Sequence record: DRR378314_1470
Length of the DNA stretch: 46,270 nt
Reading direction: 5' to 3' (one strand)
The position numbers and the translations under genes were made by a program. The notes beneath the pieces are model-generated. The model ran no database searches, was not told the origin of the DNA, and worked only from the letters and a program-made list of their open reading frames with translations. Shown piece after piece: positions 32,075 through 45,995 of this stretch; position 1 is the first letter of the stretch; each line of letters opens with the position of its first letter.

Positions 32075-32913
32075 GCACTTTCCTCGACAGTGAACTTTCG
32101 GCCTCAGAACGCACTGAAGACGCCCGGTTCCACGTGATACCTGTGCCGCTTGAGCGCACGGTCTCCTACGGGTCTGGTACTGCTAAGGGCCCCGACGCCA
32201 TCATAGAGGCCAGCAACGAACTGGAACGCATCACTGGCCACGCCGAACCCTGCGTCGAGGGCATTTTCACCGAAGCGCCCGTCGATTGCGATGCCTCTCT
32301 GTCTGAGATCATGGAGCGCATCGCCCAGCGCACCGAGGCCGCCACCCGCGCGGGCAAAGTACCGGTCACGCTGGGCGGAGAGCATTCGCTCAGCTATGGT
32401 GCTGTGATGGGTGTGGCGCGCGCGCTTAATCAGCCTATCGGCATCGTTCAGATCGACGCCCATGCCGACCTGCGCAACGCCTATCAGGGTGAGAAACACT
32501 CTCACGCGTCGGTCATGCACCTGCTGGCCGAAGAAGGTATCCGTCTGGCGCAGTTCGGTGTCCGTGCCTTTTCGACCGAAGAAGCCCAAAGCCGCCTGAA
32601 AAACCATGTCTTCCACGTGGATGCCGAAGAACTTGTGACTGGCAACATCCACTCAGTCGACCTGCCCGATGATTTCCCCGAACTCATCTATGTCAGCTTT
32701 GATGTCGACGGTCTGGACCCATCGCAGATGCCTGCAACGGGCACACCTGTTCCGGGTGGGTTGGGTTACTATCAATCACTACGCCTCGTGGAACACGCCT
32801 TGAAGGGTCGCAGGTGCGTCGGTTTCGACGTGGTGGAACTGGCCCCCGATGGCAATGCCGCCTGGGATTTCACTGCGGCGCAGATCGTCTATCGCCTTAT
32901 GGCAGCCTGTTAA
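32071..32913 (+). CDS. speB: Agmatinase-type ureohydrolase
   Basis: GGEHS, DAHADLR, SHASVM, SFDVDGLDPS..PATGTPVPGG, FDVVELAP. Confidence 0.85.
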   Translation: MSTFLDSELSASERTEDARFHVIPVPLERTVSYGSGTAKGPDAIIEASNELERITGHAEPCVEGIFTEAPVDCDASLSEIMERIAQRTEAATRAGKVPVTLGGEHSLSYGAVMGVARALNQPIGIVQIDAHADLRNAYQGEKHSHASVMHLLAEEGIRLAQFGVRAFSTEEAQSRLKNHVFHVDAEELVTGNIHSVDLPDDFPELIYVSFDVDGLDPSQMPATGTPVPGGLGYYQSLRLVEHALKGRRCVGFDVVELAPDGNAAWDFTAAQIVYRLMAAC

Positions 32914-33500
32914 TCCTTGGACGTCTCGTTCAGCTCCATGTGCCCGTCGCCCTTGTTCAACACGCGGCGCAGCATAGGCTCAAAAAACTCCAGCGGTTTG
33001 GTCGGGTAATTCGAATCAAACGCCTTTTGATCGTATTCGTGACAGAAATAACGGCAGTCCTCCCAATAGGGGCTGTCGCGATACTTGTCGCGGGCGTTTC
33101 GATCACCGCCAAGGTGGTGGTTGTAGTAATACCCCTGAAACACACAATGATGCTTGAGGATCCAATGTGTTTTCTCGCTGACATACGGCTTCATCATCGC
33201 CGCTGACAATTCTCCATGATTATAGGGCGACAGAATATCGCCGGTGTCGTGGATCAATGCAGCCACAACCAATTCTTCATCCGCACCATCTTCATAGGCC
33301 CGTGTCGCGGCCTGCAGGCTGTGCTGATAACGATTGACGGGATAGGGTGTCCATTCTTCGTCCAGGGATCGGATCGCATCCAGAATCCTGTCCGGCAAAG
33401 CGGCATTATAGGCCTCTTCATACTCCATCACGGCGTCCCAGTCCGCTTTGGTGGCTTCTTCAAAACTGGTCCAGGTAGGTTTGTGGCTTTTGTCCAACAT
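32910..33500 (-). CDS. HD-domain metalloprotein (PhnZ/TmpB-like ligand pattern)
   Basis: QHSLQAATRA, AALIHDTGD, NHGE, KHH, YDQKAFD; stop shares TTAA with the convergent speB stop; start placed at ATG 33500. Confidence 0.8.
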   Translation of the reverse strand: MLDKSHKPTWTSFEEATKADWDAVMEYEEAYNAALPDRILDAIRSLDEEWTPYPVNRYQHSLQAATRAYEDGADEELVVAALIHDTGDILSPYNHGELSAAMMKPYVSEKTHWILKHHCVFQGYYYNHHLGGDRNARDKYRDSPYWEDCRYFCHEYDQKAFDSNYPTKPLEFFEPMLRRVLNKGDGHMELNETSKD

Positions 33501-33586
33501 GGCGCGTTCCTGTGGCGGGTTACCCAATCAGGTTAGCGGGGCTGGAGAGCAACGCAAAAGGAATTCTGACCCATATGCGCCGGCAG

Positions 33587-34726
33587 TCACATGGATGGGA
33601 TCGCATCCCTCTGGCCGGCGGTTGACCGACGAAATAGCGGCCGTCCTGCAATGGTCAGAAAAAGGCCGGACAATATGACGCCCAGCATCGCCGGAAGGTA
33701 AAGCAATATCCAAAGCTGGGGGTTTCCAATCACTACAGGAGAGACAAACCCCCGCACGCCTTCCAACAACACCAGAATCGTGAAAGCTCCCAATATCTGA
33801 GGCCACAATCCAAAACGCGAAAAGCTACCAAGCATAAGCGCCGAATACCCAACCAACGCAACCGCGATACATATGGCAACCCACGAGAACCTCTGATGCA
33901 GCTCATCAACCAAATGGCCGATGCTGTGATCATCTTGAACTGCGACAGCTTCCCGGTCCCAGATCAGCTCCATCGTCGGGATCGCTTCAAGGCTACGATG
34001 ACCCATGCCAGATTCCTTCGTCAGCTCTGAGATATCGTAAGACGCATCTTCGAATAAGGTGGAAGACAACGTATTGCCTGCCTGATCATACCGCAGGGCA
34101 ATACCGTCCAACATCACCAGATGTAGGCCCGAAGCCTGATTTACCAGATAGGCCGTTGTGCTTGAGTAACTAACAGGGTTCACCGCATCGCGCTGGTCTG
34201 AGACGAAGACCTCGTGCAGCGTTCCATCCAGATCGATACGACCGATATAGACGATGACACTGTCTGCAGGGTGCAGGAATTCACCTTCGTTCAACAATTG
34301 CGCAGTAACGTCCCCGGCGACCTCATCCTGTCTTTGTTCAAGTTGATCAACCGATGCGGGGCGCAGAAATACACTGATGACAGCCATCATCAAACCAGCG
34401 CTGAGCCCGAACATCAAAACGGGACGCGCCAGTCGCCAGGGGCTGGACCCTGTTGCCAGCATTACCGTCATTTCACTTTCGCGGCTCAGCCTGTTGGTCG
34501 CGTAAACAGCCGCGGCAAAGACCGCCATGGGCATGACCGTCCGGATCAACGTCGGCAGGGTCAGCGCAGTGAATTCCAGAAACACCATCGCGGATTGTCC
34601 GCCGCTGATCACCCGGTCAAACAAGCTGACCGAGCGTGTGATCCAGAACACCCCGACCAGCACCAAGGTGAAAAAGCCAAACAGCACCAGCAATTGCCGC
34701 AGGAAATACCCATCAAAACGCGACAT
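33587..34726 (-). CDS. lptF: LPS export ABC transporter permease LptF (YjgP/YjgQ family)
   Basis: MSRFDGYFLRQLL..FGFF.LVLV, NRLSRESEMTVMLATGSSPWRLARP, GEFLHP, LGSFSRFGLWPQI. Confidence 0.82.
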   Translation of the reverse strand: MSRFDGYFLRQLLVLFGFFTLVLVGVFWITRSVSLFDRVISGGQSAMVFLEFTALTLPTLIRTVMPMAVFAAAVYATNRLSRESEMTVMLATGSSPWRLARPVLMFGLSAGLMMAVISVFLRPASVDQLEQRQDEVAGDVTAQLLNEGEFLHPADSVIVYIGRIDLDGTLHEVFVSDQRDAVNPVSYSSTTAYLVNQASGLHLVMLDGIALRYDQAGNTLSSTLFEDASYDISELTKESGMGHRSLEAIPTMELIWDREAVAVQDDHSIGHLVDELHQRFSWVAICIAVALVGYSALMLGSFSRFGLWPQILGAFTILVLLEGVRGFVSPVVIGNPQLWILLYLPAMLGVILSGLFLTIAGRPLFRRSTAGQRDAIPSM

Positions 34727-34798: not shown

Positions 34799-36214
34799 TT
34801 ACGACCGATCCCGTGTTGCAATCAGGATGCGATGATACCAAAGCCAGCGTAGAATACGGGCTGCGCGGTTGGTATCGAGCATATCAGACCAACGCGCACA
34901 GATGTCCAAACTCGTCGCGGGCCAGTCCAATCGACGCAACAAAGGACCCAGCGAGATCCCCTCCAGATTGGCGACTGGTCGAGGAAGGTTCGGGTGCGTG
35001 ACGACAAGACCGGGCTCGATACGAGAGGCAGCCTGCACGCCGGACCTGATCAGTTTTGCGGTCGGGGACAGGATCAAGGCCTGATCGTCGGGTAACATCT
35101 CGGGGTTCGGATCAGACTGGGACGACTGCAGCCAGTCCACCGGTTGCGCACGCTCGGCCCAAAAAGGTGAAGGATTATGGGCCTGCTGCCGTGCATAGAA
35201 ATCTGCGGCAAGCGCTGCATGGGTCTGAACACGCTCCGCCTGACGGTCGGCATAAAAAGACAAGGCCAGATCGCTATGTTCAGGTGTTTCCTGCAGCGTG
35301 TTCACCACAGCAGCGGCTTGCACAGCCTGCCCCATCGCCAGTTGCACCCCCTGCGATGACAAGGCGTCGACTGTGAAACTGGCTTCCCCCACCCGCAGAA
35401 GATCGTGCGCCGGAGGTGTTGTCTCGGCCCGGCTGGTCGCATCCGTGCGCCGCACGGGCCCGATCCGGCGCTGCTCTAGACAGGGCGACAGCAAAGGCGA
35501 TTGCGCCAGTAGGTTCAGATAAAGATCACGTCGCCCTGCAGGTGACAATCCGGTGCAGGTGTCAGGATTAACGAAAATCATCGCATTAACCACACCGCCG
35601 GGCAGAAGGGCACCCCAATACCAATGCGACGCCCCGGCCTCGACCCGCGCTTGTGGGCCAAAGCCCGGCGGCACCTGCCAATAGGCGTAAAGCGCCAGCA
35701 AGGGTTGGGAAGCTGCGCGAAACCGGCGTCCTAACCCGGCCTGCCGTCCGGCAGCATCGAGAAGGATCTGCGCCCGGATATGGAAGGCGTCCGTTTCGGT
35801 TCGGACCGGTATATTCCAACCAGATCGACCACGTATCGGGCGATATGCGCGCGCGGGCTGGACGATCTGAACACCCGCACCCTGCGCAGCCTGCAGAAGG
35901 ATCGCATCGAATTCGCCACGATCCACCAGAAGGCCGGGATTGTCACCATCAACTCCACGACGCTCAAACGCGCTGGCCCAATGTAGAATCGATCCGCTTG
36001 CACGTAGAAAGCCGGCGTGTGCGACGGGTTGATCAACCCCCAACAGCTTCAGGATCGGCCAGATCGAGGGGGGCAGAGATTCACCGACATGCTGGCGCGG
36101 AAACGGCTGGCGTTCAACCAGGCAGACACGGCGGCCCAGCTGCGCCAGTCTTAGCGCCACCGCGCTGCCTGCCGGTCCACCGCCAATCACGCAGATTTCG
36201 GCTTGTATCGTCAT
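34799..36214 (-). CDS. FAD-dependent monooxygenase, QhpG/LodB-like (putative Trp-modifying flavoprotein for CTQ biogenesis)
   Basis: Real start MTIQAEICVIGGGPAG at 36214 (the ORF-track extension overlaps the radical SAM gene); FPRQHVGESL, VDRGEFD..L, DAAGR, VGEASFTVDALSSQG, AAVVNTL...P....LA..FY..R...DFY......PFW..R. Confidence 0.78.
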   Translation of the reverse strand: MTIQAEICVIGGGPAGSAVALRLAQLGRRVCLVERQPFPRQHVGESLPPSIWPILKLLGVDQPVAHAGFLRASGSILHWASAFERRGVDGDNPGLLVDRGEFDAILLQAAQGAGVQIVQPARAYRPIRGRSGWNIPVRTETDAFHIRAQILLDAAGRQAGLGRRFRAASQPLLALYAYWQVPPGFGPQARVEAGASHWYWGALLPGGVVNAMIFVNPDTCTGLSPAGRRDLYLNLLAQSPLLSPCLEQRRIGPVRRTDATSRAETTPPAHDLLRVGEASFTVDALSSQGVQLAMGQAVQAAAVVNTLQETPEHSDLALSFYADRQAERVQTHAALAADFYARQQAHNPSPFWAERAQPVDWLQSSQSDPNPEMLPDDQALILSPTAKLIRSGVQAASRIEPGLVVTHPNLPRPVANLEGISLGPLLRRLDWPATSLDICARWSDMLDTNRAARILRWLWYHRILIATRDRS

Positions 36215-36218
36215 CGGG

Positions 36219-37529
36219 TCAGGCAGAGGCCGCCTGCGCGGACACGCCAAAATAGTCCGGGCGCGCTTCGGACAAGCGGACATAAGCCTGCAAGCAATGG
36301 TGCAACCAACCGCGAATATAATCGCAAGCGGGGCGTCCACGGTGGATGACTTCGTGATGACAACCGCCGCCACACAGATACCGAGCCCAACAGGTGTTGC
36401 AGGGGGATTGAGTGTGGACGTGTCGATCCGCCAGCCAGTTTTCGCGCCGCAGATCAGGGCCATCATAGACGTCGCCCATCGCTCCGGCCTCGTCCTCGAC
36501 AAAGCGATGGCAGGCGAACAACCCGCCATCGGCTGAAACGCCAAAATATCCACCACCTGCGCCGCAAGCATAGGGGCGGTGCGTGCCGCGGTGGATTTCC
36601 TGCATCGCCGCCGCCATATTCGAGAATGGATAGCGTCGCCCTTGGATCACCGCCGCCTCAAACACCTCACCACAACGGATCATCTGTGTCAGCATCTCGT
36701 CCAAATCGTTCCCGTCCAACTCATGCTGGCCGTTGGGCGACGCCAACATCGGTGAGAACCCGATCGAATGGAAACCCATCCCGACAAACCGATCCAGCGT
36801 TTCAGGCAGGTTCATGTTCTGCGGTGTGACCGTCACCCGGGCACCAACTTGCATGCGATGTTGTGCGGCCAGCAAAGGCTCGACCCTTTTCAGGATCGTA
36901 TCGAAACTGCCCCGCCCACCGCGATTTGGACGCAACTTATCATGCACCTCGCCCACACCATCCAGACTGATCGTGACGGCAAAGCCATGCGCTTCGAAAA
37001 AGGCAGCGTCCTCGGGGCGGAGCAAGGTGCCGTTGGTGGTGATCGAAAAGCCAACACTCAACCCGTTTGCTTGCGCCTGCTCTACTGCATAATCCGTAGT
37101 GCGCTGCACCAGATCGCGGTTAATCAAGGGTTCTCCGCCCAAATAGGCAAGGTTGATCCGTACGCCGGGCTCGGCCTCGGCCACCAGCCGATCGACCGAA
37201 GCTTTGGCGACCTCCCACTCCATATTCCTTGCAAGACCGCCAAATTCTCCGCCTGCCGCATAGCAATAGGTGCAGGCCAGATTGCATTTCTGCGCCACCG
37301 CCAACGACAGCGACCGCACCGGCATGTCCTGGGGTGGCGTATCGTCAATGAACGGCGTGCCGTCCAACCCCATCGACCTGAGGAAAGCGCTTTGGCCGGG
37401 CTGGTCCATCGACGCAAACTGATCCGCCGTTCCGCTGGGTACATCGAACACGCGCGAGCCATCAACGGCCAGCATATGGTCCCCATGCCCGCTGTCAAAA
37501 AAATGCACCTGCGCGGCGGGTGGAATCAC
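36219..37529 (-). CDS. Radical SAM/SPASM protein, QhpD/thioether-maturase-like
   Basis: CNLACTYC (CX3CX2C), GGEPL, TTNGTLL, ISLDG; SPASM CGAG...ACHRF...CNTCWARYLCGGGCHHE...C; GTGA overlap with the upstream stop. Confidence 0.88.
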   Translation of the reverse strand: MIPPAAQVHFFDSGHGDHMLAVDGSRVFDVPSGTADQFASMDQPGQSAFLRSMGLDGTPFIDDTPPQDMPVRSLSLAVAQKCNLACTYCYAAGGEFGGLARNMEWEVAKASVDRLVAEAEPGVRINLAYLGGEPLINRDLVQRTTDYAVEQAQANGLSVGFSITTNGTLLRPEDAAFFEAHGFAVTISLDGVGEVHDKLRPNRGGRGSFDTILKRVEPLLAAQHRMQVGARVTVTPQNMNLPETLDRFVGMGFHSIGFSPMLASPNGQHELDGNDLDEMLTQMIRCGEVFEAAVIQGRRYPFSNMAAAMQEIHRGTHRPYACGAGGGYFGVSADGGLFACHRFVEDEAGAMGDVYDGPDLRRENWLADRHVHTQSPCNTCWARYLCGGGCHHEVIHRGRPACDYIRGWLHHCLQAYVRLSEARPDYFGVSAQAASA

Positions 37530-39286
37530 GCCTTGCCCTCCGTCCAGAACGGAATGCCGATATTTTTGGCAGCCAGTGCTTCACCCTCGTCCCGGAACAG
37601 CTTCATGTCATCGCGCACCTGCTGAATAAAGGTTTGCGACTCTTCAAACTGGCCCTGAGCCTCCAGCGTATAGGCTTTGGCCAGCCCATCTTTGACCTTT
37701 GCATACAGATCAAGCGCCGTTTTGGCCTGCGCTTCAGTCCCGACCTCAATCGGGCGCAGATAGGCAGGTGTGCCCTCACCTGTGTCATATTTGGCCAGAA
37801 CGTCCTTCATCTGGCTGAAACGCAGGAAATGTTCATCGCCGTCCGTGTCAATCCGAACCGCCAGAGCGTACAGGCGACGTTCGGGGAACAAGTCCTCTTG
37901 CTCCAAGGTCGCCACGCATTGCGCATAAGCGCGGTCGATGTAACCGCCAGGGCGCTCGATCTCGATGAAATCCGCAAGGGCTTCGGCGGTTAAGGGACGA
38001 AGCGCGCGCGGCTGCGTCTTACCTCTGCCCGCTGGCAGGGTTTCAGACGGGGTCAGTATGGGCTCGTAATTCTCAGGCTCAAGTTCCCACAGCAGCTGGT
38101 TGGCCCAGCGCATATGGGTCATCTCGCCAATCGCGACCTCCAGAACCGAACGTCGGGCAAAGATCAGATCATCCTTCAGCGTCGGCCATTTCTTGGTATC
38201 CGCCGTATCGGGATCGGCCAGAGAGAAATAGGCATAGAGATATTGCAGGCTCAACGTCATTTCCATCGCAGCCAGACGGGTCCTGAGGTCCTTGATCATC
38301 TCCTCGGGCGTATCGTATGGCTCAACGCCCGGCATTTCGGGATCGACCTCATAAACCTCGCCGGTCTCACGGCCTTCGACCACAATTGGCAGCTCGCTCC
38401 ACATCTGGTTCACCTGATAGTGGTCGATCTGATAAGGGCGGTTCTGTTCCACTGTATTCAGTGCCGCCACATTGCCCGATGGCGACTTGTCCGAGCGTAG
38501 CCAGTCCAGATATGTCTCAGCCTCGATCGGGTTCTTCGACTGGCCCGAGGGCAGCTGATCGTCATGGGCCACCTCGGCCATCACCACGTCAGGGTGGTTC
38601 GAGGGCCAGTAGTGGCAGCCGCAGTCGCGAAAATCATGGGACCACGGGTTGCACAGGCTCTGCGTCAGTTCACCGGGATCATAGGCTTCGCTGAACACAC
38701 CCGCTTCGGTCCGGTACTGGCGTCGGAAACCGTGCAAGACAACTTGTTCAGTATCCACAACCCCTTCGTGATTGCGCCGCTCCAGAGCGATGCTGACCGG
38801 TTTGTCATCACCGTGTTCCAGACTGCGGATAAAACGCCAGATCATCAAGCCATCATAGGGCGTGCCGTCTTCCTCTTTGAAAGTGATCCGCTTGCCGCTT
38901 TGTTCAACCCATGACAGGAACCAGCGCCCCTGGCTGAGCTTTGCGCCCACCTCGCCACTATAGGCCTCCAGCAAGGTCTGCACCCAATCCTCGGTGCTGT
39001 TATCGGGCAGCATCGGGTCGTAGAAATAGTCGACGAATACCAGATGGAAGCCCTGCGAATTCTTCGGCGCTTCGGGCACAGGGCTGAGCGGAACACGCAC
39101 AGCGTTGAACACCAGACCGGGAAAGAAACGCCGGTCGAGGTTGCGCACGTCCATTTCCAGACCGGGAAAGCAATTGCCCACCGATCCGTCCAGACGCGTG
39201 TTATCGGGGTTGCCCGGCACCTTGTAAGCCGCACGAGCGGTCAGGTTACGGGGTGTGACGCGGATTTGGCCGGGTTGATCAGACAT
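37526..39286 (-). CDS. LodA/GoxA-like C-terminal (CTQ-bearing) domain fused to a ferritin-like domain
   Basis: Start MSDQ at 39286 with GGAGG SD; GNCFPGLE, PGELTQSLCNPWSHDFRDCGCHYWPSNHPDVV, MWSELPIVV; then ferritin-like LAAMEMTLSLQYLYAYFSL...IGEMTHMRWANQLL...FIEIERP...DGDEHF. Confidence 0.75.
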   Translation of the reverse strand: MSDQPGQIRVTPRNLTARAAYKVPGNPDNTRLDGSVGNCFPGLEMDVRNLDRRFFPGLVFNAVRVPLSPVPEAPKNSQGFHLVFVDYFYDPMLPDNSTEDWVQTLLEAYSGEVGAKLSQGRWFLSWVEQSGKRITFKEEDGTPYDGLMIWRFIRSLEHGDDKPVSIALERRNHEGVVDTEQVVLHGFRRQYRTEAGVFSEAYDPGELTQSLCNPWSHDFRDCGCHYWPSNHPDVVMAEVAHDDQLPSGQSKNPIEAETYLDWLRSDKSPSGNVAALNTVEQNRPYQIDHYQVNQMWSELPIVVEGRETGEVYEVDPEMPGVEPYDTPEEMIKDLRTRLAAMEMTLSLQYLYAYFSLADPDTADTKKWPTLKDDLIFARRSVLEVAIGEMTHMRWANQLLWELEPENYEPILTPSETLPAGRGKTQPRALRPLTAEALADFIEIERPGGYIDRAYAQCVATLEQEDLFPERRLYALAVRIDTDGDEHFLRFSQMKDVLAKYDTGEGTPAYLRPIEVGTEAQAKTALDLYAKVKDGLAKAYTLEAQGQFEESQTFIQQVRDDMKLFRDEGEALAAKNIGIPFWTEGKA

Positions 39287-40991: not shown

Positions 40992-42557
40992 TCAGGGGTT
41001 CGAATATGTCTCATAAGTGATAGTCGGGTCGTCGAAGATCGATTTCGACTTGTCTCGAATAATATCCGCCGGCGCGTCATCGGGCACGGGCGAGATGCTT
41101 TGCTGGTAGTGAAAGAAATTGTTCGGATCGAATTTCTGCTTCACGAACAGTAGCGAGTTGAAATACTCGCCCCAATATTGCCAGCGATAGTTCAACTGCG
41201 TCCGGCGCGGATAGTTTTGATAAACCCGGTCGATGAAATAGCCCTCATCGGTCATCAGCGCCATGAACCCGTCAAGCCAGGGCACAACTGTCTCTTTTTC
41301 CTCTTCGGACAGCCAGAATACATCGACATAGAAGTTCAGTGACACATCGCGATGAATAAAAGCGTTGCCATCTTTACCCAAAGGCATCCGGTTGATCGCC
41401 CCGCCATAAGGTTCGATCGCGACAGCACCATAGGCATTGGGCGTACTGTCGAGGTAATCGACCACGCGCTGCCATTCCGCCGTGCTAAGCTGGCGTTTGA
41501 TGTACCCGGCCTGTTTATCCTCTCGCGCCTGATCGGGCACAACAGGGATGTCGTATTTATCGTCATAGAGCCACGAGTTGATTTCCTGATAGGTGCCATA
41601 GTTCTGATCATCCTCACCCATCTCACCGGCGATTTCATCGCTGAGCAAGGGCTGGACAAACGCATCACCTTCTTGAGGCGTGCCATCATAAAGCGCTGAA
41701 AGCAGCAGCACCTTCTTGTCCCCCTGATAGGCCAAGAAAATATACGCACCAAACCTGTCATCTTTGCAGGTGCTCATGTAATTGGCCTGCAGAAACTCCA
41801 GCGCTTTTGCGGCTTTGTCTAGCGGCCATGTGATGTGGCAACCCCAGACCTTATATAGCGGATGCAGCTGATAACGAATTTCCAGCAGAATACCAAAGTT
41901 GTTACCCGTTCCGCCCCGGATCGCCCAAAACAAATCAGGGTTTGTATCCTTGTCCGCGATTACAATGCTGCCATCCCACAGCATCACGGTGACGCCCAGC
42001 ACATTGTCGCACGCCATTCCAAAACGGCGCGAGGTAAAGCCATATCCGCCGCCCATCATGAAGCCTGCAACACAGACATCCAGACATGCCCCGCCGGGCA
42101 CATGAAGATGATAGGAATTCAGAATCGAGTTCAACATTTTGAACGGCGTGCCCGGCCCCACATAGGCCATCGGCACATCCGGATCGACGCTCACATAGCG
42201 CATCTTGCTGGTGTCCAGCACCATCTGGTTGTTGACCGAATACCCTGCCGTGCTGTGCCGCCCTGATCGCGCCACAACCCAAAGCTCGTGTTCGCGGGCA
42301 AAAGCAAGACTGGCGCGTACATCGTCAATGGTTTCACAATAGACGATGATTTCAGGATAATCCTGAAACGCCGGGTTCCAGACTTGTCGGTCATTGTTGT
42401 ATTCAGCGTCGGTGGGCAGGGTGACCGTTCCGATCAGCTTTTTCTCAAAGGCGCGTATCTGCTCGGGCGAGATCGAATGATATTGCTGCAGCGTCAGATC
42501 GGTGCGGCTTTGCGCCAGGATATCTTTGGCCAGAAGGGTTTTGCTGATCTTACGCAT
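40992..42557 (-). CDS. BBE-like FAD-linked oxidase (FAD_binding_4 plus BBE domains)
   Basis: ARSGRHS (covalent-FAD His), PGGACLDVCVAGFMMGGGYG, DLFWAIRGG..NNFGI, YQNYP...YWG...VKQKFDPNNFFHYQQSI. Confidence 0.88.
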   Translation of the reverse strand: MRKISKTLLAKDILAQSRTDLTLQQYHSISPEQIRAFEKKLIGTVTLPTDAEYNNDRQVWNPAFQDYPEIIVYCETIDDVRASLAFAREHELWVVARSGRHSTAGYSVNNQMVLDTSKMRYVSVDPDVPMAYVGPGTPFKMLNSILNSYHLHVPGGACLDVCVAGFMMGGGYGFTSRRFGMACDNVLGVTVMLWDGSIVIADKDTNPDLFWAIRGGTGNNFGILLEIRYQLHPLYKVWGCHITWPLDKAAKALEFLQANYMSTCKDDRFGAYIFLAYQGDKKVLLLSALYDGTPQEGDAFVQPLLSDEIAGEMGEDDQNYGTYQEINSWLYDDKYDIPVVPDQAREDKQAGYIKRQLSTAEWQRVVDYLDSTPNAYGAVAIEPYGGAINRMPLGKDGNAFIHRDVSLNFYVDVFWLSEEEKETVVPWLDGFMALMTDEGYFIDRVYQNYPRRTQLNYRWQYWGEYFNSLLFVKQKFDPNNFFHYQQSISPVPDDAPADIIRDKSKSIFDDPTITYETYSNP

Positions 42558-42680: not shown

Positions 42681-45600
42681 TCAAGTAGCCGTTTCCAACA
42701 ACGCCCGCGCATCTATTAGATCCGCCTGATCCGCGTCCGGTTCGAAATGAGACAATGCATCGCGCAAGGCTTCGCCCGCTGGCTCTCCACGGCTCTGCCG
42801 CCAACGTGTCAGTGCTATGGCCGCGCGCAATTCGTACAGGCGTGCCCCCTGCCTTTGCGCCGTTTTGATTGACTGCAACAGCAAAGGTTCAGGGTCGCCA
42901 CCGGTATTGGCGACAAAGGTGGCTTCGATTCGTAGCTGCTCGGCTTCGGCCCATTTCTCTTCGGTTTCGGACAACATTTGGGCAGCGTGCGATAAAGTCT
43001 GCTCAGCCGCCTTATGATCACCCGCGTTGATTAGAAGCTCGGCGATCAGAGACGGGAAGAAACACTTATAGTTTCCTGCCCCAACGGCCCACCAGTCTTC
43101 CGAGGCTTGGCGCAAACTATCAATATGGGTGATATCAGAGGATTCTGTCGCCTTTGCCCAGCTTTCCCACAATCGCGCAATGGTGGCCATGAAGGGCAAC
43201 GAATGCTCTTCGGCGACCTTGGACAGAGCTTCGACATCTTGCTGCAACGCCGGGATGTCGCGGGCCAACAGGTGAACCTTGCACATATAGACCAGAATCT
43301 GGGCCACGCTGTGAGCGTGCTTCAGATCCTTTGCCCAGTCCAACGCGGTACGCTGAACCTGCAAGGCTTCCTGGTGCCGCCCCATCAGGCAATAACACGT
43401 CCCCAGAAAGGCCGATGTAATGGCGGCGTGATCTGTACCGTAGACATAGGCCAACTGGCTGTGTTGATCGAAATCGTACAACGACCAGGCTTGTTCAAGG
43501 TGTGTCTTCGCCTCGGGCAGATTGCCCAGATGCAATTGCACCGCACCCATCGCGCGATGGCCAACCATCCGATGCTCGGTCCTGCCGCTTTCCGCAGCCA
43601 GATCAAGTATCTGTGACGATACGTCTTGCGCCAAACGATATTCCGCGCGCACCAGATGGAAGGCATAAAGCCCATTGAGAACAGGGAACAGTCTGTCGGT
43701 CTCATCCGCGCGATGGCAGAGATCGCGCAGGCGGCCATAGGCCTCGCCCGTGGCATCCCCTGAGATTCCGCTGGTCGAGCGCAGAACACCCGCCCGCAGG
43801 ATCTGGATGTCGATCTCCTGCAGATCACGGTCTCGGCTCTTGGGCAGGTCTGCCAATTGGTCCAAAGCCGTTGATAGATGCGTCAGCGCCTCGGTCTGGG
43901 CCGAGCGTTCAATGGCCCGCTGCCCTGCACTTTGCCAATGCAAGACAGCCTCATCTGCGCGCTGGGCCAAGGTGTAATGCTGCGCAAGAACTTCGGGCTG
44001 CGTCTGGGCAAGCTGAGGTTGGTTTTCCAGCAATGCGCCTGCTGCACGGTCATGCAATACCTGCCGTTCCGTGCGCAGCAGACTGTCATATGCCATGTCT
44101 CGGATCAAAGCGTGGCGGAAGATGAATTCATCTTCTGCCTCATCGGGCGCCTGAAGGATGATACCGGCTGAAGAAAGCTGCTCTAGCCCAGCTTGCAAAA
44201 CCGTCGGAGACAGAAACGACACCGAGGCCAGCAGCGCGATGGAAAATTGTCGGCCGAAGACGGCACCAGTTTGTGCCACTTCTTTGGCTTTGCCCAAACG
44301 ATCCAGACGCTCCATCAGCGAGTCCTGCAGCGTACTGGGAACAGAAAGTGATGGCAGCGGCCCACGCAGGGCATATCCTTCATCGGTCAGCCGCAACTGC
44401 CCCGATTCCAGCAAGCCACGCGTGACTTCCTGAATAAAAAGCGGGATGCCGTCGGTTTTGGCTGCAATCAGATCGCAAACCTCGGGCGGCACCAAATTCC
44501 CTCCGGCCACTTCCGCCACGATCTCAGCGACGTCCCGATGTTCCAGACGTCTGAGCGGCAGATGCAGTGTATTGTTGTGATGCCCCCAACCTGGATCAAA
44601 GCCGGGACGTGCCGTCACAACAATAAGCACCGGCAATTCCCGAATGCGTTCAATCACCCGGTCGGTCAAAGACAAAGTGGTCGGATCAACCCAGTGGGCA
44701 TCCTCAAACAACAACAATACAGGCTTATCACGCGCCAGCGCGGCAAGTTGTTCAGTCACCGCTTCCAGCGTCTGCTCAAGCTTTGCCTGCGGCGGCAGGT
44801 CAAGTGGCCCAAGTGCTGCGTCCGCTTCGACGCTCAGCAAATCGGCGATAAGACGCACATGTTCGGGCGGGTGGTGACGCAGGAGATGCGACAGCTTTCC
44901 GAGTTTATCCTCGTCACCGTCCGATGGTGCGAACCCTGCCGCACGTTCCAGATGTTGAATGATGGGATAGAGCGCGGAATTGGCGTGAAACGGAGAGCAT
45001 TGGAAATTCAGCCTTAGCGCGCCCTGATCCTGCACCTCCTGGCTCAGCCCTTCGATCAGGCGCGATTTACCAATCCCAGCCTCACCTGAAATCAGCACAG
45101 ATTGGCCTGCACCCTGACACGCCTCGTGCCATTTGTCGGTCAGCTTGCGAAACTCGGCCTGACGCCCGACAAGTCGCCCCGCCCCCGCATCCGGCATGAT
45201 GTCAAATCTACGTTCGATACGGGCCTGCCCCGTCACGATCCAGGCTTGAACCTGTTCCGAGAATCCCTTGAGTGCGAATGATCCCCGATCCCGAAGCTCG
45301 AATGCATTGCCAATCAACCTGCGGGTTGAAGGGCTGATGATCAGGGTATTGGGCTCGGCCAGCCCCTGCAGGCGAGCGGCCAGATTGGGCGTGCGCCCCA
45401 TGACCACATCATGTTCTTTCAACCCTTCGCCATGGATCTCACCAACCACGACGAGGCCGGTCGACACACCGATCCTTGCGCTCAGCTTTTCCTCACCTTC
45501 GATGAGGGTCAGCCCGTCCAGAATATCCAGACCTGCATGAACAGCCCGCGAGGCCGCATCTTCAACTGCGTGAGGGTAGCCGAAATAAATCATCGCCCCA

Positions 45601-45995
45601 TCGCCCATGAAGCTCGCGATATGTCCGCCAAACCGAGCTACCGAAGTCGAACAGATTTCTTTGAACCGGCGCAGCAGCTCACCCAGATCTTCAGGGTCCA
45701 GACGCTCCGACAGGGCCGTCGAACCAACGAGATCCACAAACATCACAGTCAATTGACGGCGCTCGGCCACGATCTTGCCGCTGCCCTGAACGGGTGTCGG
45801 GTTTGCATCTCGTGCCCGCCCCAAGGCCGCCATCAGCCGCCGCCTCGGCCCCAATGGAAGACCCAAGTCGATGAGATCATGTTCGGTCAGGTGTCCCAGA
45901 TCAGTCAGAGAAACTTCGTTCGAAGCAAAAACGGGCGCAAACTTCGACAGTCCAAGGTCTTCAAGAAATGTGTCGATCTCTGCCATTATCCCCAT
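42681..45995 (-). CDS. SAM domain + class III adenylate/guanylate cyclase + STAND AAA ATPase + TPR-like protein
   Basis: SAM (FLEDLGL..FAPVF...DLIDLGLPLGPRRRL); ERRQLTVMFVDLVGST, MGDG, TPNLAARLQ; Walker A GEAGIGKS; Walker B LLLFEDAHW; GIPLF; C-terminal ELRAA. Start may be ATG 45986. Confidence 0.9.
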   Translation of the reverse strand: MGIMAEIDTFLEDLGLSKFAPVFASNEVSLTDLGHLTEHDLIDLGLPLGPRRRLMAALGRARDANPTPVQGSGKIVAERRQLTVMFVDLVGSTALSERLDPEDLGELLRRFKEICSTSVARFGGHIASFMGDGAMIYFGYPHAVEDAASRAVHAGLDILDGLTLIEGEEKLSARIGVSTGLVVVGEIHGEGLKEHDVVMGRTPNLAARLQGLAEPNTLIISPSTRRLIGNAFELRDRGSFALKGFSEQVQAWIVTGQARIERRFDIMPDAGAGRLVGRQAEFRKLTDKWHEACQGAGQSVLISGEAGIGKSRLIEGLSQEVQDQGALRLNFQCSPFHANSALYPIIQHLERAAGFAPSDGDEDKLGKLSHLLRHHPPEHVRLIADLLSVEADAALGPLDLPPQAKLEQTLEAVTEQLAALARDKPVLLLFEDAHWVDPTTLSLTDRVIERIRELPVLIVVTARPGFDPGWGHHNNTLHLPLRRLEHRDVAEIVAEVAGGNLVPPEVCDLIAAKTDGIPLFIQEVTRGLLESGQLRLTDEGYALRGPLPSLSVPSTLQDSLMERLDRLGKAKEVAQTGAVFGRQFSIALLASVSFLSPTVLQAGLEQLSSAGIILQAPDEAEDEFIFRHALIRDMAYDSLLRTERQVLHDRAAGALLENQPQLAQTQPEVLAQHYTLAQRADEAVLHWQSAGQRAIERSAQTEALTHLSTALDQLADLPKSRDRDLQEIDIQILRAGVLRSTSGISGDATGEAYGRLRDLCHRADETDRLFPVLNGLYAFHLVRAEYRLAQDVSSQILDLAAESGRTEHRMVGHRAMGAVQLHLGNLPEAKTHLEQAWSLYDFDQHSQLAYVYGTDHAAITSAFLGTCYCLMGRHQEALQVQRTALDWAKDLKHAHSVAQILVYMCKVHLLARDIPALQQDVEALSKVAEEHSLPFMATIARLWESWAKATESSDITHIDSLRQASEDWWAVGAGNYKCFFPSLIAELLINAGDHKAAEQTLSHAAQMLSETEEKWAEAEQLRIEATFVANTGGDPEPLLLQSIKTAQRQGARLYELRAAIALTRWRQSRGEPAGEALRDALSHFEPDADQADLIDARALLETAT

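Follow-up and report, generated by a model that had tools for sequence, protein, structure and literature searches.

What is the task of a radical S-adenosylmethionine (radical SAM) enzyme whose gene overlaps that of a LodA-like protein? The question is raised by an operon of a marine Ruegeria, found in a 46,270-nucleotide (nt) stretch of DNA from sequence record DRR378314_1470 (hereafter the window), in which translationally coupled minus-strand genes, overlapping or nearly abutting, follow one another in the order P2, P1, radical SAM enzyme and flavoprotein. Quinohemoprotein amine dehydrogenase (QHNDH), LodA and GoxA are the only enzymes with cysteine tryptophylquinone (CTQ) named in a 2025 review, where their biogenesis routes are called distinct (PMC11951088). 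LodA and GoxA form CTQ without a radical SAM enzyme (PMC11951088). In QhpC, the small subunit of QHNDH, CTQ joins Cys37 to Trp43, and thioethers link Cys7, Cys27 and Cys41 to Glu16, Asp33 and Asp49, respectively (PMC8172795); the Cys41-Asp49 thioether has been confirmed (PMC7876137). QhpD and PapB both form non-alpha thioethers from Cys to Asp or Glu (PMC8172795).

The operon suggests an undescribed class of quinone enzyme. The explanation favored here, that a QhpC-like loop within a split LodA/GoxA enzyme is matured by a QhpD-like radical SAM enzyme and a QhpG-type flavoprotein, is taken as a whole to be slightly on the probable side. It is built on gene anatomy, conservation, fold, residue homology and gene linkage, from which we infer the chemical steps.

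A QhpC-like loop in P1

P1 (37526-39286, minus strand; 586 amino acids, aa) begins at ATG 39286, which is its likely start rather than an upstream TTG because close homologues share that Met and the length of 586 aa. The translation reads L211-C212-NPWSH-D218-FRD-C222-G-C224-HY-W227-PSNHP-D233, with codons C212-D233 at 38588-38653 on the minus strand (CNPWSHDFRDCGCHYWPSNHPD). This is a predicted CTQ loop, in which C222 and W227 would form the cofactor in the company of Asp218, the extra Cys212 and Cys224, and Asp233. A first-pass annotation of the window had placed a QhpC-like crosslink code between 38588 and 39172; place and numbering agree with the translation, the codons of D233 and C39 forming the two ends of that interval.

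In an alignment of 32 sequences (A1; 45-77% identity), no motif residue varies. The pattern C-x-PW-xx-DF-xx-C-x-C-xx-W-xxxx-PD persists down to ~30% identity and is present in 243 of the 245 family proteins that cover the region, drawn from 267 gathered, the two exceptions being P0197, with Ser for Pro before the last Asp, and P0261, which is divergent after the Trp and apparently truncated. A looser pattern that fits QhpC and P1 alike occurs once in the six frames of the window and in none of 200 shuffles. Across 93 loci (3.1 million six-frame residues), it is found once in each of 89 and is missing from L051, L083, L084 and L085. The motif is not due to chance. D221 is an acid conserved in the P1 family only and is predicted to be an alternative thioether acceptor. 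One metagenome contig (L170) holds a P1 homologue with an in-frame stop inside the motif (DFA*C), possibly a pseudogene or a sequencing error.

For comparison, 151 and then 401 genomes were searched for PF08992; the nine loci obtained contain seven clean QhpC sequences, which read C-x8-E, then LC[QA]PMEADLYGC[SA]DPCWWPAQVPD. The QhpC pattern and residue numbers that the annotation had used are borne out by these sequences and by the published accounts (PMC8172795; PMC7876137), as are the spacings that it had called identical in P1 and QhpC, namely C to D (+6), D to C (+4) and W to D (+6). When the family was aligned with QhpC by hhalign (E 0.077 over 33 columns), C212 was paired with C27, D218 with D33, C222 with C37, W227 with W43 and D233 with D49. 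The two proteins share LC-x-P-xxx-D-xxx-C...C...W-P-xxx-PD, each proposed pair has its Cys on the N-terminal side of the acid, and four Cys are conserved in the nearer part of the P1 family, with C39 lost in many distant members. Of the full QhpC register, C-x5-D-x3-C-x3-C-x-W-x5-D, P1 has C-x5-D-x3-C and W-x5-D, with the middle Cys at +2 and the Trp at +5. A QhpC hidden Markov model built here scored at most 9.4 bits on P1 residues 208-248, compared with 7.6 bits for the best of 1935 shuffles. Judged from these alignments, the link between P1 and QhpC appears consistent but statistically weak.

The carriers of the loop also differ, since QhpC has ~80 residues with a 28-residue leader, whereas the 586-aa P1 would lie inside a LodA/GoxA fold of ~860 residues; unlike the QHNDH system, this one involves neither a signal nor export. 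In genome G002, the QhpC frame (L083, 712-1725, minus strand) departs after CWWPA and continues for 338 aa into ATPase-like sequence, which may reflect a frameshift, a fusion or an assembly error.

Relation of the loop to LodA and GoxA

Alignment of the family with GoxA-type proteins by hhalign (E 0.0021 over 122 columns) matches D218 to D552, C222 to C556 and W227 to W571. The latter is followed by P572, the W571-P572 pair is invariant, and a 10-residue gap falls between C224-H225 and Y226. Mutant GoxA chains in the PDB (D678N and D678A) identify D678 as the Asp of PWQSD-AAS-C, and this Asp corresponds to QhpC Asp33, conserved in tryptophylquinone enzymes (PMC7876137). The alignments with GoxA and QhpC support the roles that the annotation had predicted for C222 and W227 as the CTQ residues and for D218 as the conserved Asp, and a CTQ at C222-W227 is likely.

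Compared with LodA and GoxA, P1 has extra Cys at D-6 and W-3. Among 120 GoxA-type proteins, none has a Cys at D-6 and none has one between the CTQ Cys and the Trp; counterparts of C212 and C224 are also missing from L084 and LodA. The earlier expectation that these Cys would be absent from lodAB-type proteins lacking a radical SAM gene thus agrees with all of these sequences, the lack of that gene being read in two GoxA loci, both of which have a LodB-type gene. The spacer between CTQ Cys and Trp is 4 residues in P1, compared with 14 in the 120 GoxA-type proteins, which have a Cys at D-1, and 64 in LodA by published numbering. Residues 496-516 of LodA chain 3weu_A read CEPGDLTKRMACPWQADFFNC, and the extra Cys of LodA is therefore at D-5, not D-6. 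WWP or YWP follows the CTQ Cys in GoxA-type proteins and in a second LodA-like protein, and the register PG-x-LT...PW-xx-D-xxx-C...[WY]-W-P is common to P1, LodA and GoxA. The fit to LodA motifs claimed in the annotation is upheld for PG-x-LT...PW-xx-D-xxx-C by 3weu_A and the GoxA alignment.

Upstream of the loop, P1 reads N38-C39-FPGL-E44-MD, a segment invariant in A1, whose part NCFPGLE (codons N38-E44, 39155-39175, minus strand) is the counterpart of the C...PGxE segments in GoxA (C467...PG-x-E477) and QhpC. An echo of QhpC C7 and E16 had been proposed here; the segments do correspond, but the acid stands at +5 in P1 and at +9 in QhpC. The suggested C39-E44 crosslink fares worse. Among 231 family proteins, 24 have S/T/A in place of C39. 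Of the 71 distant loci that are readable here, 37 have S/T/A/N at this position, and 34 of these 37 keep the radical SAM gene. The Cys before PG-x-E is nearly invariant in a 14-sequence alignment of GoxA-type and LodA-like proteins (A3), without a radical SAM enzyme. Because C39 is often lost while the radical SAM enzyme stays, and the GoxA Cys occurs without such an enzyme, the link would be at most a subfamily feature, and a C39-E44 thioether in P1 itself is improbable.

A predicted split LodA/GoxA fold with a ferritin-like domain

P2 (39279-40952, minus strand; 557 aa) overlaps the start of P1 by 8 nt and is assigned to the N-terminal two thirds of the LodA/GoxA fold. Structure models indicate that P2 and the first ~320 residues of P1 together are a split LodA/GoxA fold, the remainder of P1 being a ferritin-like bundle. 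This division is proposed because natural P2-P1 fusions exist (P0121, P0125, P0145 and P0150; 1110-1201 aa) and because a model of one of them matches GoxA and LodA and then the ferritin-like structure 3hl1. The fold test used the AlphaFold2 model of P0121 (mean predicted local distance difference test score, pLDDT, 76.3) rather than the chains encoded in the window. By VIA-align, residues 5-864 of this model match GoxA 6vmw_C (Z 16.9, root-mean-square deviation (rmsd) 5.7, 412 aligned) and LodA 2ymw_B (Z 16.5, rmsd 4.6, 407 aligned), and Foldseek gives the LodA/GoxA-fold match an E of 2e-8. Residues 877-1145 match the ferritin-like CC_0557 (PDB 3hl1_A; Z 20.5, rmsd 2.5, 219 aligned).

Within P1, residues 1 to ~320 are assigned to the C-terminal part of the LodA/GoxA fold by alignment, the LodA_C match and the fused-homologue model, and residues ~325-586 (37529-38314) to a PF12902 ferritin-like four-helix domain by Pfam, the AlphaFold2 model and VIA-align. 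PF12902 passes its Pfam cut-off (45.9 bits compared with 22.3). LodA_C falls exactly on residues 199-234, below its cut-off (19.5 bits compared with 25), and LodA_N in P2 is also below (17.8 bits compared with 26.3). The N-terminus of P2 is LodA-like, with a weak alignment. The NCBIfam LodA/GoxA models NF038172 (18.3 bits, cut-off 600) and NF038173 (14.2 bits, cut-off 750) are both far below threshold. Sequence searches of P1 and P2 against PDB chains gave at best an E of ~1, to LodA, Foldseek with P1 alone gave ferritin-like folds only, and P1 residues 1-325 had no usable match in the ESM Atlas. In the AlphaFold2 model of P1 alone, pLDDT is below 50 at residues 1-43, 213-241 and 245-318; in that of the fused homologue it is below 50 at 765-787, the loop.

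The annotation had described the loop as embedded in a LodA-like C-terminal domain, and the placement was right, although the protein is better described as part of a split LodA/GoxA fold plus a ferritin-like domain. With LodA and GoxA, the system shares the predicted fold (Z 16.5-16.9), an N-terminal [VI]AR[LV]G start and a neighboring flavoprotein of the same superfamily. It differs from them in its two genes, fused in some species, in the added ferritin-like domain and in the radical SAM gene beside it. A Tat signal, present in the GoxA of L085, is missing here, and P2 lacks a signal peptide.

In the ferritin-like domain, E342, E388-x-x-H391, E444 and H486 are invariant in the 32-sequence alignment and, judging by the residue pattern, are probably a di-metal site. 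The C-terminal half of P1 resembles other PF12902 proteins (CC_0557/3hl1; VioB/RebD-type domain by source names) by Pfam and fold, but in P1 the domain is fused to a predicted CTQ-loop protein. In some sources, PF12902 proteins go by the name 'iminophenyl-pyruvate dimer synthase' (VioB-like), a naming that hints at amine oxidation coupled to a second oxidative step. Among solved structures, the one nearest to the C-terminal half of P1 is CC_0557 of Caulobacter vibrioides, a species that also has a LodA_C match above the cut-off, and the association of LodA-like and PF12902 proteins may therefore be wider than the P1/P2 family. A 2015 census notes PF12902 genes only beside fungal lodA-like genes (PMC4417212).

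Candidate maturation enzymes

The radical SAM/SPASM enzyme (36219-37529, minus strand; 436 aa), a predicted Cys-to-Asp/Glu thioether synthase, overlaps the stop of P1 by 4 nt. Its best NCBIfam models are QhpD (TIGR03906; 309 bits, cut-off 453) and then PapB (270.9 bits, cut-off 340), and QhpD is the best model for all four radical SAM enzymes of the cluster that were compared. Besides CX3CX2C (C82/C86/C89), seven other Cys are invariant in this enzyme, and its identity with two true QhpD is 31%. PapB, the second-best model, links Cys sulfur to the beta-carbon of Asp (PMC8172795), and like ranthipeptide maturases, which make radical non-alpha thioether RiPPs, it acts on a short Cys-rich peptide, whereas the presumed substrate here is a large enzyme. 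A precursor peptide gene or another QhpC-like open reading frame was sought by a six-frame pattern search and none was found in the window, which rules out a small QhpC-like product encoded there as the real substrate. QhpC is also absent from G001, the nearest genome compared.

Complex prediction for the radical SAM enzyme with P1 residues 1-330 gave a score of 0.54 (runs 0.52, 0.54 and 0.60), with 0.00 for the best of three controls. Of 78 solved complexes, 51 attain the mark used for this score, as do 2 of 108 mismatched pairs, and scores of 0.60 or less comprise 5 of the 78 solved complexes and all 4 passing mismatches of 180. The runs, made without custom alignments, share at least 20% of their contacts, and the pLDDT of the partner is 26-27, which leaves its fold uncertain. 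The prediction lends weak support to P1 as a partner of the radical SAM enzyme.

The flavoprotein (34799-36214, minus strand; 471 aa from ATG 36214) is a QhpG-type flavin monooxygenase and the predicted hydroxylase of Trp227. It passes the QhpG model NF049967 (315.5 bits, cut-off 240) and is below the cut-off of 400 for both LodB (127.9 bits) and GoxB (121.3 bits); divergent flavoproteins of other clusters score 84.8-200.9 bits with the QhpG model, below its cut-off. A QhpD-best radical SAM/SPASM enzyme and a flavoprotein above the QhpG cut-off are thus held in common with the QHNDH system, although qhpA, qhpB, qhpE and qhpF are absent from the 33-46 kb part of the window, the part that was scanned for them.

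Linkage of the loop to the candidate maturation genes

Two sets of 80 loci were compared, one from genomes and one of a distant subfamily from metagenomes (~30% identical to P1); because both were gathered with patterns that contain the motif, their counts cannot show that the motif predicts the radical SAM gene. In the genome set, the radical SAM gene is found in 78 of 80 loci and P2 in 78 of 80, all misses being at contig ends (L014 and L054 for P2; L035 and L051 for the radical SAM gene). G027, a genome that came up by its Pfam LodA_C match and not by the motif, has P2-rSAM-P1 (rSAM, radical SAM gene) together with the motif. In the distant subfamily, which has the order P2-rSAM-P1, the radical SAM gene is present in 69 of 80 loci, and 10 of the 11 misses begin within 232 nt of a contig end. 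The eleventh, L158, has 1 kb upstream without a radical SAM match and is no counter-example, because only 335 nt are visible downstream of P1. The co-occurrence of C212 and C224 with the radical SAM gene, as anticipated in the annotation, was therefore seen in every one of these motif-gathered loci with room for the gene, L158 excepted.

A QhpG-like gene was detected at E 1e-10 in 54 of the 80 genome loci, and three of three inspected loci in which it seemed to be missing hold a divergent copy with QhpG as best model. In all four distant loci inspected, a QhpG-best flavoprotein directly follows P1, so that a QhpG-type flavoprotein is present in 7/7 loci inspected by hand in the two sets together.

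Gene order varies. Ruegeria and most proteobacterial loci have P2-P1-rSAM, and cyanobacterial and Bryobacterales loci, like G027 and the distant subfamily, have P2-rSAM-P1. The loci with differing gene order are among L056-L060, L064, L065, L071, L078-L080, L095 and most of L096-L175. In L056, the flavoprotein lies upstream and is divergently transcribed.

Proposed maturation route and alternative explanations

P2 and P1 would be the two chains of a cytoplasmic enzyme that has the fold of the LodA/GoxA quinoproteins and in which the cofactor loop appears to have shrunk to the size and Cys pattern of QhpC. The QhpD-like radical SAM/SPASM enzyme would staple this loop through thioethers between Cys sulfur and Asp methylene, C212-D218 being the best guess, with C224 stapled to D233 or alternatively to the family-specific D221. 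The QhpG-type flavoprotein would hydroxylate W227, C222 would add to the indole, and oxidation would then give CTQ, with D218 as the conserved active-site Asp. The mature enzyme would oxidize a primary amine or amino acid, and the fused ferritin-like domain, with its probable di-metal site, may replace the heme subunit of the dehydrogenase or the direct O2 reduction of LodA. At least one radical-SAM thioether in P1 is reasonably probable; C212-D218 has an even chance, and C224-D233 is a more tentative assignment, somewhat short of even.

Several points weigh against this explanation. The analysis is computational, and neither a crosslink nor a quinone was observed. The resemblance to QhpC is short and marginal by both hhalign and model score, Pfam finds no PF08992 match in P1 at E 0.01, and the distance from CTQ Cys to Trp is +5 in P1 compared with +6 in QhpC, that to the middle Cys +2 compared with +4. 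Pfam scores for LodA in P1 and P2 and the QhpD score of the radical SAM enzyme are below their cut-offs, and the loci came from searches with the motif itself. QhpD requires a leader peptide on QhpC (PMC7876137), and P1 is without an evident leader, its N-terminus resembling GoxA residues ~455-480 by eye. Extra loop Cys unrelated to C212 and C224 occur in LodA (D-5) and GoxA (D-1). In GoxA, where no radical SAM enzyme takes part, the acids D218, E44 and an Asp near W+6/+7 are likewise conserved, so they are not specific evidence for thioethers; at the sequence level, such specific evidence is the two extra Cys and the radical SAM enzyme only. The low pLDDT of the loop, both in P1 alone and in the fused homologue, fits a loop that needs covalent staples but is no evidence for staples.

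An alternative is an ordinary LodA-like quinoprotein, in which the flavoprotein alone makes CTQ, C212 and C224 are free, disulfide-bonded or metal-binding, and the radical SAM enzyme acts otherwise on P1 or P2, at a different residue or through another crosslink type, for example to D221. LodA and GoxA need no radical SAM enzyme for CTQ and carry extra loop Cys that no such enzyme crosslinks (PMC11951088), the D221 acid is peculiar to the P1 family, and the middle Cys is out of the QhpC register. However, the two best models for the radical SAM enzyme are both Cys-to-Asp/Glu thioether synthases, its linkage to P1 spans several phyla, and C212 is exactly at the position of QhpC C27 relative to the Asp. 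We regard this alternative as unlikely.

It is highly improbable that there is no quinone, with a LodA-like scaffold repurposed so that C39, C212, C222 and C224 bind a metal or iron-sulfur cluster, and with the radical SAM enzyme and the flavoprotein acting on a small molecule together with the BBE-type oxidase and the VioB-like ferritin domain. Such a pathway would be in keeping with four conserved Cys that include a CxC pair, the presence of a BBE-type oxidase in the operon, the 'iminophenyl-pyruvate dimer synthase' name given to PF12902 proteins and the sub-threshold LodA Pfam scores of P1 and P2. Yet C39 is dispensable in many members, and D218, C222, W227 and the following Pro stand in the same CTQ register as in GoxA and QhpC. 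The flavoprotein invariably belongs to the QhpG/LodB/GoxB type, whose family is known to mature peptidyl-Trp, and peptides and proteins are the targets of SPASM enzymes in the clade of the radical SAM enzyme.

An equally slim chance is given to a coincidental or convergent likeness, in which a LodA loop was shortened and QhpD/QhpG-like genes were recruited independently with no evolutionary link to QHNDH, since the marginal QhpC profile scores and a register off by one residue are set against three separate elements that agree (the loop pattern, a QhpD-best radical SAM enzyme and a flavoprotein that passes QhpG) and against the likeness of QhpC itself to GoxA on WWPAxxP (E 0.00075) and, by eye, on a shared C...F-x-PG-x-E segment.

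Beyond the favored explanation, in which the QhpC-like loop is matured within the split LodA/GoxA enzyme, a wider and rather doubtful reading would make the P1/P2 family a fourth class of CTQ enzyme and an evolutionary link between LodA/GoxA and QHNDH. As parts of that one joint reading, QhpC would have been cut out of a LodA-like ancestor as its thioether-stapled cofactor loop, or the change would have run the other way; stapling by a QhpD-type radical SAM enzyme would here take place within a leaderless 586-residue enzyme; and electrons from the quinone would pass to the fused di-metal ferritin-like domain, not to heme or directly to O2. Because the family joins a LodA/GoxA scaffold to maturases of the QHNDH type and a loop like that of QhpC, it becomes directly testable how the small subunit of QHNDH arose. 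If the thioethers are real, radical-SAM thioether stapling would reach beyond peptides and a 9-kDa subunit to a large enzyme, and a quinone-plus-ferritin-domain architecture would be added. A literature search, conducted largely outside subscription journals, found neither a description of the P1/P2 family nor a paper in which a LodA-like protein is connected with a radical SAM enzyme, and the main text of a 2015 census of LodA-like genes mentions neither Ruegeria nor radical SAM enzymes (PMC4417212).

Neighboring genes and distribution

The first gene of the operon encodes a BBE-type oxidase linked to flavin adenine dinucleotide (40992-42557, minus strand; 521 aa; PF01565 and PF08031), present in 53 of the 80 genome loci. 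A 1104-aa protein with SAM-domain, adenylate cyclase, AAA_16 and TPR regions (42681-45995, minus strand) is likewise found in 53/80 and is likely a regulator linked to the cluster. The next genes downstream of the operon, for an HD-domain (MIOX-like) protein (32910-33527, minus strand) and an LptF/LptG permease (33587-34726, minus strand), are probably unrelated to it.

The family is rare: it was met in 1 of 401 sampled genomes of the phylum, and a motif-pattern search of ~185,000 species genomes matched 201 stretches. Its members are spread over Alpha- and Betaproteobacteria, Acidobacteria, Actinomycetota, Cyanobacteria and Myxococcota.

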